Of a stretch of 64,000 nt of DNA, positions 39,175 to 42,780 are shown in pieces; position 1 is the first letter of the stretch, and the number at the start of each line of letters is the position of its first letter. Both the position numbers and the translations under genes were made by a program. The DNA is from an uncultured Acidobacteriota bacterium (GTDB taxonomy: Bacteria > Acidobacteriota > UBA6911). Where the stretch lies: the NCBI GenBank assembly GCA_963827655.1, contig CAWHCF010000037.1:1-64000 (forward strand), given 5' to 3'. The notes under the pieces are model-generated. The model was not told where the DNA came from and ran no database searches. It saw only the letters and a list, made by a program, of their open reading frames with translations.

Positions 39175-40509
<1,335 letters not shown>

Positions 40510-40676
40510 GGGGAGATTATAGCGGAGCCCGAGGCGTACACCATCTTAGTGTTTCTTCGTGTCTTGCGTGCCTAGATCCTATGTAGGGCGGCAGCTCGCA
40601 GGGTCGAAAGAGCGGGCCGTTCTTGGTAAGCTCCTTTTGGGTTTAGTTGTCTAATCCAAAACAAAAAGGAGAAACT

Positions 40677-41831
40677 ATGACCAAGACGACCCGCAACCAA
40701 CAGTATAGCGATATTCGACCGACATTGTTTATGGCATTTGAGCTAGGGATGTCGGAATGGAAACTGGGGTTCACGATTGGGCTGGGGCAGAAGGCGCGAA
40801 GGCGCACGGTAACAGCCGGCAACCTTGAAAAAGTACAGAGGGAGATCGTGGCCGCCAAGAAACGGTTCCAACTTCCGGAGACGGCCGAGGTGGTGAGCTG
40901 CTACGAAGCAGGGCGGGATGGGTTTTGGCTGCATCGATACTTGACGCAGTCTGGGATCGGGAACCTGGTGGTGGACTCAGCGAGCATTGAAGTGAACCGG
41001 AGAAAGCGGCGAGCTAAGACGGATCGCATGGACGTGGAGAAGTTGCTGACCATGCTGATTCGGTATCAGTACGGAGAGCACAGGGTCTGGAGCGTGGTGC
41101 GAGTACCTTCGCCCGAAGAGGAAGATAACCGGCAGTTGAATCGAGAGCTGCGCAGCCTGAAGAAGGAGAAGACGCGGACCACCAATCGCATCAAGGGACT
41201 ACTGGCGAGCCAGGGGGTCAGGCTTGAGCCTGGGAAGGAGCTGTCGGACAAGAAACTGGACTCGATCAGGTTATGGGATGGCTCGCCATTGCAGCCGGGG
41301 TTAAAAGGCCGCCTGCAGCACGAGTGTGCGCATGTGGTGTTTTTGAAGCGACAGATCCTGTCGCTGGAGGGGGACCGCAGGCGCGAACTCAGAGAGGGAG
41401 AGAACCCGGACCTGGACCAGGTTCGCCAGCTTGCGTCTTTGCGCGGCATTGGTGTCAACGGCGGTTGGGTGCTGGTGCGAGAGTTCTTCGCCTGGAGGAA
41501 GTTTAACAACCGGCGCGAAGTGGGGTCGCTGGCGGGCCTGGCGCCGACCCCCTATCAGAGCGGGGAATCGAGGCGGGAGCAAGGGATTAGCAAAGCCGGC
41601 AACCGTCACGTCCGGGGGGTAATGATTGAGCTGGCCTGGTCTTGGGTGCGCTTCCAGCCCAAGAGCAAGCTTACTCAGTGGTTCGAGGAGCGTTTCGGCG
41701 GTGCGGGCAAGCGCGTCCGTAGGGTTGGAATAGTGGCTGTGGCACGACGCCTGCTGATCGATATGTGGAAGTTCCTCGAGACCGGAGCTCTGCCCGAGGG
41801 CGCGCAACTGAAAAAAGTAGTAGTCGCTTAG
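40677..41831 (+). CDS. IS110 family transposase/recombinase
   Basis: CYEAGRDGFWLHR, KTDRMD, GIG, GLAPTP.QSG, ISKAGN and VAVARRL; frame intact. Confidence 0.95.
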   Translation: MTKTTRNQQYSDIRPTLFMAFELGMSEWKLGFTIGLGQKARRRTVTAGNLEKVQREIVAAKKRFQLPETAEVVSCYEAGRDGFWLHRYLTQSGIGNLVVDSASIEVNRRKRRAKTDRMDVEKLLTMLIRYQYGEHRVWSVVRVPSPEEEDNRQLNRELRSLKKEKTRTTNRIKGLLASQGVRLEPGKELSDKKLDSIRLWDGSPLQPGLKGRLQHECAHVVFLKRQILSLEGDRRRELREGENPDLDQVRQLASLRGIGVNGGWVLVREFFAWRKFNNRREVGSLAGLAPTPYQSGESRREQGISKAGNRHVRGVMIELAWSWVRFQPKSKLTQWFEERFGGAGKRVRRVGIVAVARRLLIDMWKFLETGALPEGAQLKKVVVA

Positions 41832-42024
41832 ACGGAGAGAAACCAGAACGTGAGAACGTTCGAGACCTAAACAGCCTATGAAACCTCAGGTGTTGTTTTC
41901 CTCTTGCGGCCATTGTGCTCCGGCCGGCCCCAGCGGCGTCAAGGCTAAACCCTTTGGGCGCGCTGTGCGCGGCCTTGACCCCGCGGGCCGACCGGAATTT
42001 TTGGCCGCTAAGAGGAAAACAACC

Positions 42025-42270
42025 GAGAGTAAACCAACTTCTCGGCATGGTGGGACTGCCCGAAAATACCACTGGTATCCGTTTTGGAACCGGTTCCTAG
42101 ATGGGGCGTCCCGAAAGCGCTCGCACATTTTTCGCCACCGCGCGAATACAGGATTGGGTGTCCGATCACTACACGATCGGCACGGATAGAAGTTTCATTC
42201 GGGGTCTATCCCCGAATCAGACACCGAGCCACCAGCTGCAGACGTAACCAAGGAGGTCAACCGAAAGGAG
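42025..42270 (+). ncRNA. Candidate bridge/seek RNA in the IS right end
   Basis: Non-coding, several stems; contains ATAGAAGT and CCTAGAT, identical to the element's junction sequences; boundaries approximate. Confidence 0.5.
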
Positions 42271-42295
42271 CTTGACACCCAAGACTACATAGAAG

Positions 42296-42780
42296 TGTTT
42301 GATCGGGCTGCGTTCCTACGCAGGCACGCAGTGATCACCGGCACGAACGGCGCAGAGCCCTCAGGCGGCATTCGGTGGATCGGGGTTCAAGCGGCATGCC
42401 GGTCGGAATTGGGCGAACATTCGATCCTTAGGACCGGGCAGTACTCTCGTCGCCATGATCCGGAGTTGTTGGACTGGTCGGCCTCGGCCCTCCTTCTCGA
42501 TGGCAGTGATCTGTGGATGGGTTTGATTGTTCGACCCGAAGGAGCCGTCGACCCGGGAGGGCTCGCCCGAATCCCACTAGAAGGCGGTCCTATCCGGAAG
42601 TACCGAGTCCCGGCCGTGATTCACAGGATCCAGAAGTTTGGCGGCGCGCTCTATCTGGCCACGTCGGAAGGCATCTTCATCGTCGACCGCAGCAATCTCG
42701 TTCACGTGAACCTCGACCCGGACAGGAACGGGGAGTACAGTCTCAGGTCGAGCACACACGCGCTGGTACCTCAACCATAG
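42296..42780 (+). pseudogene. 3' fragment of a beta-propeller-like protein gene
   Basis: LWMGL and LYLATSEGIF blade-like motifs; no convincing start, begins at the IS end. Confidence 0.45.

Follow-up and report, generated by a model that had tools for sequence, protein, structure and literature searches.

A putative bridge/seek-type guide RNA encoded at the 3′ end of an ISRel9-like insertion sequence from an uncultured Acidobacteriota bacterium

A stretch of 64,000 nucleotides from an uncultured Acidobacteriota bacterium (contig CAWHCF010000037.1 of assembly GCA_963827655.1, positions 1 to 64,000 of the forward strand; hereafter the window) contains an insertion sequence (IS) at 40574-42295. 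The reading favoured here, with a probability of about 0.85, is that it is an intact IS110-family element of the ISRel9-like clade, a branch that has been little studied, with an IS1111-like layout, whose 3′ end encodes a guide RNA of the bridge/seek type. Bridge/seek RNAs located in the right ends of IS1111-type elements, with a mirrored order of the target matches, have already been published (PMC11187229; available text of PMC11208160). The evidence for such an RNA in this element came from a structured sequence downstream of the transposase gene that is conserved in relatives from many phyla, and from four of its segments that change together with the ends or the insertion sites of the elements that carry them. 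The main features are the following:

40574..42295, + strand: insertion sequence, one copy of the AG core included (from the alignment of copies and the single AG in empty sites)
40677..41831, + strand: recombinase/transposase gene, 384 aa, with predicted catalytic residues E22, E77, D116, D119 and S295
42041..42240, + strand: conserved structured RNA of putative bridge/seek type, matched by a covariance model with 126.5 bits, the sole match in the window

A structured RNA with four candidate guide segments

A protein search returned at least 8000 relatives of the transposase, and a scan of reference genomes gave 80 related loci with 50-62% identity from many phyla, among them Acidobacteriota, Chloroflexota, Gemmatimonadota and Planctomycetota. 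With iterated nhmmer searches, 71 of these loci were seen to contain the right-end sequence. A covariance model of homologous right ends, the check that an earlier first-pass annotation of the sequence had proposed, was built from a structure-blind MAFFT alignment of 20 lineages and gave full-length matches in 70 of the loci, always on the transposase strand save for one inverted second copy in L048. At that locus the two right-end RNA copies stand tail to tail on opposite strands (L048:1678-2069, +; L048:2310-2701, −), which suggests that two adjoining elements were inserted in inverted orientation. The sequence held in common with the relatives starts at about 42031 in the window, and in the relatives the conserved part begins about 50 nt past the stop codon; the first 200 nt past the stop codon of the window's copy, including a palindrome of 135 nt, are lineage-specific.

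RNAalifold applied to the 20-lineage alignment proposed helices that were then extended to a scaffold of seven, all on the + strand:

42046-51/42231-36, + strand: helix P0
42052-61/42104-12, + strand: helix P1
42074-80/42086-91, + strand: helix P2
42119-24/42224-30, + strand: helix P3
42132-35/42142-45, + strand: helix P4
42158-66/42176-83, + strand: helix P5
42197-204/42210-17, + strand: helix P6

In the structure-blind alignment, 87.6% of the cells were paired, compared with 33-46% when the partners were slid, and 27 of the 49 base pairs displayed compensatory changes. When 65 distinct sequences were aligned to the model, 90.3% of the cells were paired (35-41% with slid partners), 41 of the 49 pairs were compensatory and 452 compensatory cells were counted against 147 in shuffles, figures that lean towards the structure because these sequences had been fitted to it. 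The frequent G-U pairs assigned the RNA to the strand of the transposase gene. Folding of the single sequence 42044-42238 recovered P0, P1, P2, P4, P5 and P6, and did not recover P3. An alternative hairpin around the right target guide (GCCCG/CGGGU), which is possible in many relatives and not in the window's copy, was set aside in favour of the longer P1, where 10 of 11 pairs showed compensatory changes.

The exact ends of the element were defined by its copies in the same genome. A DNA search of the 8.18 Mb assembly (53 contigs) identified four full copies and one 5′-truncated copy: that of the window (C37), C44 with six differences from it, the two C10 copies (C10a and C10b) with 53 and 57 differences, and the truncated C20. 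Alignment of the copies with their flanks revealed a common sequence running from AGATCC to CATAGAAG, with AG bordering every copy, and a pattern search of the genome showed that empty repeats hold one AG. Because the right end stops at GA-AG, the left end begins with AG-AT and the empty sites keep a single AG, the core is AG, with copies at 40574-40575 and 42294-42295. The mobile unit is therefore 40574-42295, and T40573 and T42296 are target flank. The first-pass annotation had recognised a real element, but by reading from TAGATCC (40573-40579) to the ATAGAAGT at the right terminus (42289-42296) it had included both outer T bases, which belong to the flank; the T core and the empty site GTGCC-T-GTTTGA that it reconstructed gave way to GTGCCT-AG-TGTTTGA, as read in the empty repeats of the genome. 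The non-coding sequence amounts to 464 nt downstream of the gene (41832-42295) and 103 nt upstream of it (40574-40676).

Four segments that remain unpaired in the scaffold correspond to the sequences flanking this core. Hairpin P2, inside P1, has a target guide on either side, and hairpin P5, inside P3, has a donor guide on either side:

42063..42073, + strand: right target guide AAAATACCACT, located in the P1/P2 internal loop, on its 5′ side, and reverse complement of AG+TGGTATTTT
42093..42100, + strand: left target guide GTTCCT-AG, same sense as left flank plus core
42149..42154, + strand: right donor guide CAGGAT, of which GGAT is the reverse complement of ATCC, left-end positions 3-6
42186..42192, + strand: left donor guide ATAGA-AG, same sense as right terminus plus core

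Covariation was analysed in the 43 loci with both ends mapped, which represent 37 lineages, using the flanks from other lineages as the control. The left flank plus core, in sense orientation, accumulated 30 and 55 five-base matches at 42090-42101, where permutations gave 2.6 and 6.4. The reverse complement of core plus right flank gave 49 around 42066 (3.5 permuted) and that of the left end 18 around 42146 (6.8 permuted). The right end in sense orientation gave 69 matches around 42183 against 62.7, a comparison that is uninformative because hardly any variation exists in the terminus or its internal copy. Exact matches of at least 7 nt were present for the left target guide in 29 of the 37 lineages (10.1% of cross pairs) and for the right target guide in 10 (2.1% of cross pairs). 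With the register fixed, none of 2000 permutations reached the observed score for any of the four segments: the left target guide scored 5.32 of 8 (3.36 permuted), the right target guide 5.60 of 8 (3.65), the two variable left-end bases 1.49 of 2 (0.90) and the base that follows ATAGAAG, compared with the first base of the flank, 0.92 (0.46). The latter two bases were identical in 34 of the 37 lineages and in 45% of cross pairs. At the two variable bases of the right donor guide the match was complete in 21 lineages, half in 13 and absent in three, while 15.7% of cross pairs matched in full.

These results bear on the two loops that had been drawn in the first-pass annotation, a donor loop formed by ATAGAAGT (42186-42193) and GGGTCTA (42202-42208) and a target loop formed by GGTTCCT (42092-42098) and TCGCACA (42121-42127), for which covariation with the flanks had been named as a test. 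One half of each loop was right. The ATAGAAGT segment is the left donor guide, with ATAGAAG found family-wide and a next base that tracks the flank, and GGTTCCT, which lies in a hypervariable stretch where the left flank is copied, corresponds to the left target guide. The loops as a whole are nevertheless very unlikely. The four strings are indeed found at the stated positions, pairing of GGGUCUA with TAGATCC would need one G-T wobble, and UCGCACA could pair with TGTTTGA at six of seven positions, counting one wobble. However, GGGTCTA occupies the apex of P6, the stem of which is kept by compensatory changes, and gave five reverse-complement five-base matches to the left end against 4.0 in permutations; TCGCACA lies at the 5′ strand of P3 and the bases next to it, between P3 and P4, and there was no enrichment at its columns for either flank. 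Covariation with the left end was found instead for CAGGAT at 42149-54, and the complement of the right flank is AAAATACCACT at 42063-73, so that two of the earlier guide halves had been misplaced. The T core that these loops imply is also contradicted by the empty sites.

The donor-loop evidence is weaker than the target-loop evidence, and an alternative view would be that only the target arm guides, as in the short seekRNA of ISEc11, with the protein reading the ends of the element through its subterminal inverted repeats and the donor matches reflecting shared conservation. The repeats in question are:

40579..40586, + strand: left subterminal inverted repeat CTATGTAG, 8 bp
42285..42292, + strand: right subterminal inverted repeat CTACATAG, 8 bp, pairing with CTATGTAG

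Across the 37 lineages, exact repeats of 4-6 bp predominate, and tolerating one indel often lengthens them. The near invariance of ATAGAAG and of the terminus, which leaves their match mostly uninformative, and the modest signal of the right donor guide are in agreement with this alternative, as is the finding that an 82-nt RNA carrying target matches alone supported the movement of ISEc11 (Siddiquee et al., PMC11187229). It is nonetheless improbable, given that a changed right terminus is mirrored by the same internal change in four lineages (ATAGGAG in L058, ATGGGAG in L081, TGGAAG in L084/85 and ATAGGAG in L086), that the base after ATAGAAG tracks the flank, that the two variable left-end bases are mirrored far above the level of cross pairs, and that the donor-arm helices P3, P5 and P6 are kept by compensatory changes.

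Both guides on the 3′ side of a loop extend into the other partner. After the left target guide comes AT (42101-42102), equal to the two bases with which the element continues beyond the core, and after the left donor guide comes T (42193), equal to the first base of the right flank. These 3′-side guides carry extra bases of the other partner and each of them therefore matches a recombined junction. By analogy with the handshake base pairing described for IS621 (available text of PMC11208158), the extensions may act as handshake guides. Taken together, these results map, to the level of single residues, both pairs of guides, the core, the handshake-like positions and the seven-helix scaffold.

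In the mechanism that this map suggests, a structured RNA of about 190-200 nt, read from the strand of the transposase gene, would consist of a closing stem P0 and two arms. In the target arm, the 5′ side of the P1/P2 internal loop (AAAAUACCACU) would pair with the top strand of core and right flank and the 3′ side (GUUCCU-AG) with the bottom strand of left flank and core. In the donor arm, a multiloop inside P3, CAGGAU would pair with the top strand of the left end and AUAGA-AG with the bottom strand of the right end. The recombinase, with a RuvC-like E-E-D-D domain and a Ser-containing domain, would bind this RNA as in IS621 and ISEc11. A circular element with the junction ...CATAGA-AG-ATCC..., predicted to read ...CTACATAGA-AG-ATCCTATGTAG..., would then recombine at the shared AG with a target ...T-AG-T..., of the form CGTGTCCT-AG-TGGTATTTG, and such targets would be two positions in an abundant repeat of the genome that resembles repetitive extragenic palindromic (REP) sequences. 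Circularisation would also assemble a promoter from the right-end TTGACA, a 17-bp spacer and GATCCT across the junction. We infer transcription, processing, recombinase binding, the circular form and promoter activity from the sequence and from analogy with these systems.

The recombinase and its place among known systems

The transposase was intact, as the first-pass annotation had stated, with an uninterrupted open reading frame of 384 aa that starts at ATG 40677, preceded by a Shine-Dalgarno sequence, and not at the listed TTG 40647. The C-terminal Transposase_20 domain (PF02371) was matched with E = 2.3e-18 and 66.8 bits (cut-off 21.3), and the motif G..P....SG is present as GLAPTPYQSG, with G, P, P and S invariant in 30 sequences. 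A Pfam search with the N-terminal 83 aa alone gave no match. In that region the segment AFELG was nearly invariant in 30 close homologues, one of which has AFDLG. Among the 120 homologues listed, a regular expression found Glu at this position in 100 and Asp in 11; the nine outside the pattern include seven that show Glu in their sequence and two that are truncated.

Searches of PDB sequences with phmmer and with a profile of the 30 homologues aligned only the C-terminal domain, and sequence comparison could therefore not place the first catalytic residue. Structural comparison was more informative. In an AlphaFold model with a mean pLDDT of 80.1, E22 ends strand 1 and E77 ends strand 4. The best structural matches of the model were the ISCro4 and IS621 recombinases (Foldseek E = 1.8e-12), and residues 19..380 could be superimposed on residues 5..321 of the IS621-type chain with Z = 18.6 over 289 residues. 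The model supports the placement of E22 opposite D11 of IS621, provided that the first strand has no gap. The acidic tetrad would thus read E-E-D-D, in place of the first Asp that is usual in the IS110 family. Glu at the first catalytic position had been suspected from the motif alone; it falls at the end of strand 1 in the model and characterises the clade, in which Asp is the less common residue. No literature joining an EEDD tetrad with IS110 was found, and this conservative Asp-to-Glu replacement at a predicted catalytic position is ready to be taken to the bench.

The resemblance to IS621 and ISCro4 extends beyond the fold, which matches over the full length (Z 18.6-18.9). Like the present element as proposed here, these systems have one RNA with a target and a donor loop, in each of which two guides for opposite strands flank a distal hairpin, a 2-nt core common to target and donor, and 3′-side guides extended by 1-2 nt that match the other partner (handshake guides; available text of PMC11208158). 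In contrast, their RNA lies before the gene and not after it, and the order of the guides is mirrored in the present element, where the top-strand guide comes first. Their core is CT and not AG, their first catalytic residue is Asp and not Glu, and their proteins are shorter (326-341 aa compared with 384 aa) and only about 18-21% identical to this one, with sequence alignment restricted to the C-terminal domain.

The layout is closer to that of the IS1111-family elements with seekRNAs, such as ISEc11, ISPa11 and ISKpn4 (PMC11187229). They share with the present element a long non-coding region downstream of the gene, subterminal inverted repeats (7-17 bp in that family, 8 bp here), a top-strand match located 5′ of the bottom-strand match (42063-73 precedes 42093-100 here) and a promoter across the circle junction, which is predicted in this case. 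Close relatives have also been naturally retargeted in the case of ISEc11 and ISXne4, and REP-type sequences are the targets of ISPa11. In the present element, unlike in the IS1111 family, one conserved RNA contains both the target guides and the covarying donor guides, and IS1111-family transposases have 330-350 aa compared with 384 aa. The earlier label of IS1111-type holds for the layout; the protein itself belongs to a deep-branching ISRel9-like clade and shares 38% identity with an ISRel9-family transposase.

The closest named transposase, with 38.1% identity over 98% of the query, is of the ISRel9 family, in the group of ISRel9, ISMno20 and ISAzs35 that ISfinder places in the IS110 family. 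ISRel9 itself is about 20% identical to IS1111-type transposases, according to the identity matrix in the available supplement of PMC11187229. In ISRel9, too, the first catalytic residue is Glu (SLELS). Its ends, as deduced from a single copy, are similar to those of the present element and run from AGATCC... to ...CATGTGAG, and exact substring searches found the four matching segments in the same order downstream of the gene, with TTGAC near the end. Neither the nucleotide profile nor the covariance model matched the ISRel9 locus (L093), which is too diverged for them, and the parallels between segments consequently rest on exact substring matches chosen by eye. A description of an ISRel9 RNA was not found in the main text of PMC11187229 or the available main text of PMC11208160, although figures or tables may show it; in the available supplements of the latter, ISRel9 occupies one alignment row. 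Another IS110-family element, ISPpu9 of Pseudomonas putida, is likewise inserted in REP sequences and has a small-RNA gene, Ssr9, downstream of its transposase (available text of PMC12288879). Additional stand-alone copies of the RNA gene exist in that system, whereas a profile search of the whole genome studied here for stand-alone copies found the RNA inside the five element copies only.

Target repeats and apparent natural retargeting

The REP-like repeat of this genome has the form CTT-AG-TGTTTCTTCGTGTCTTCGTGTCCT-AG-TGGTATTTGTT and is often followed by an inverted copy. By pattern count it occurs about 80-110 times, for example at C4:69699, C14:87716 and C8:45033, the individual patterns CTTAGTGTTTC, AGTGGTATTT and CTAGTGGTA being found 86, 83 and 25 times. 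Empty sites were of two kinds, ...CCT-AG-TGGTATTT... and ...CTT-AG-TGTTTC..., and each empty site listed had a single AG at the insertion point. Each repeat unit thus comprises two AG insertion sites, and both are used, by the two variants of the element. The site occupied in the window is preceded by the remainder of its repeat, in which the other site stays empty:

40545..40573, + strand: left part of the occupied REP-like repeat, ending in the left target GTGCCT; it includes the unoccupied site 1, CTT-AG-TGTTTC, with its AG at 40548-40549

Variant A comprises C37 and C44, and variant B comprises C10a, C10b and C20. They differ at 53 of 1722 positions, and the differences are concentrated in the variable bases of the target guides, where four of 17 are changed (42066, 42067, 42069 and 42097), compared with 49 of 1705 positions elsewhere (Fisher p = 0.0014). 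The guide of variant B, GAAACACT, is the exact complement of AG-TGTTTC, the sequence that borders each of the three B copies on the right. The guide of variant A reads AGTGGTATTTT, and C44 occupies AG-TGGTATTTG. As for the window's copy, its left flank GTGCCT matches its own left target guide at five of six positions. Co-resident variants that differ in right and left target guides and reside at two kinds of site look like a case of natural retargeting, and such a pair of retargeted variants within one genome could be taken directly to the bench. For the purposes of annotation, the analysis accounts for the location of these elements in REP-like repeats and fixes their true ends.

Repeated use of one target was also seen in another genome, where four copies of one relative (L036, L037, L039 and L040) all lie in the repeat GCTTTCAGCTGTC/CGATCAGCTGTCAGC. 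The base after ATAGAAG is T in these copies and the flank has C, one of the three exceptions among the 37 lineages.

Transcription, counter-evidence and accessory features

The predicted promoter of the circular form depends on one further sequence of the right end:

42272..42277, + strand: −35-like TTGACA; in the predicted circular form, GATCCT (the core G joined to the left end) follows after 17 bp

TTGAC followed by A, T or G was found near the right end in 36 of the 37 lineages, 17 nt from GATNNT in 27 of them, and the junction hexamer was GATACT in 11 lineages, GATAAT in eight and GATCCT in five, including the window's. The junction described in the first-pass annotation, TTGACA placed 18 bp before TAGATC, is therefore a conserved arrangement, with the spacing corrected to 17 bp before GATCCT. 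Circle-junction promoters have been described for ISEc11 (PMC11187229). Two terminator-like matches were detected as well, one of which corresponds to the 3′ strand of P1 plus the bases that follow.

Several observations weigh against the reading favoured here. A sigma-70-type scan found no promoter upstream of the RNA on the + strand, the single site detected being on the minus strand inside the gene. Metatranscriptome contigs with 90-99% identity were recovered from four runs of three studies (41779-42300, 41992-42295, 41882-42297 and 42103-42300), yet these are assembled sequences from RNA libraries that may derive from DNA and are silent on ends, strand and level. Rfam searched at a permissive threshold over 40300-42600 gave no match, and the N-terminal RuvC-like DEDD domain (PF01548) reached 27.1 bits at profile positions 35-151 against a cut-off of 29, although the fold matches that of IS621 from residue 5 onward. 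Relatedness among the 37 lineages is ignored by the permutation tests, which count them as independent. Among the four guides, the right donor guide has the weakest signal, with a recurrent C of the RNA opposite A of the DNA, and a single mismatch between left donor guide and right terminus is uncompensated in five lineages (L022, L032, L069, L078 and L087). Finally, the right flank of the window's copy, AG-TGTTTGATCG (42296-42310), agrees with its own right target guide only at AGTG and scattered positions, and as AGTGTTTGA it fits the guide of the sister variant B better, with seven contiguous bases.

This last misfit could reflect the action in trans of the sister RNA, a later change of the flank or recombination between copies. 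The co-resident variants share identical donor guides and, for this reason, their RNAs could mobilise each other's copies; if this is true, cross-mobilisation would account for a copy that sits at a site better suited to the right target guide of its sister.

The doubtful status of the RNA-library contigs as proof of transcription, together with the fact that the matches are equally present in the DNA, would also accommodate a different explanation, in which the internal copies of the junctions act as DNA, whether as sites bound by protein, as alternative ends or as remnants of previous insertions. This is scarcely credible. The same arrangement is seen in 37 lineages whose targets are unrelated, the closest solved relatives of the protein are RNA-guided recombinases, and the location of the segments in unpaired regions of a scaffold with compensatory, G-U strand-specific helices argues for selection on RNA.

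A wider interpretation, put forward tentatively and with the odds clearly against it, is that the ISRel9-like clade may constitute a third, deep-branching lineage of RNA-guided recombinases present in many bacterial phyla, with Glu as first catalytic residue, a bridge RNA built around a three-way junction and mirrored guides, and in which the RNAs of variants could cross-mobilise copies. IS110-family RNA-guided recombinases are under development as programmable tools for genome editing. The guide map covers a large clade, widespread in the environment, for which Rfam has no family and which goes unmentioned in the main text of PMC11187229 and in the available text of PMC11208160.

The region between the transposase gene and the RNA contains one additional structure, shared by the five element copies:

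41884..42018, + strand: imperfect palindrome of 135 nt, with no counterpart in the relatives

In a contig from an RNA library (run X16), position 41883 is joined directly to 42019 and onward, skipping the palindrome, with GAAA on both sides of the joint. This could represent a variant without the palindrome or a jump across the hairpin during reverse transcription or assembly.

Upstream of the insertion, the neighbouring gene (39175-40509, − strand) encodes a protein of 444 aa with a CxxCH motif near its N-terminus (QACH) that suggests haem binding; the element lies in the intergenic repeat and leaves the gene intact. The 5′ leader of the element (40620-40680 in the window, and the left ends of related loci) contains a conserved GGTAAGCTCC(TT) block, which is complementary to the Shine-Dalgarno region AAGGAG before the ATG, so that a predicted hairpin could mask the ribosome-binding site.

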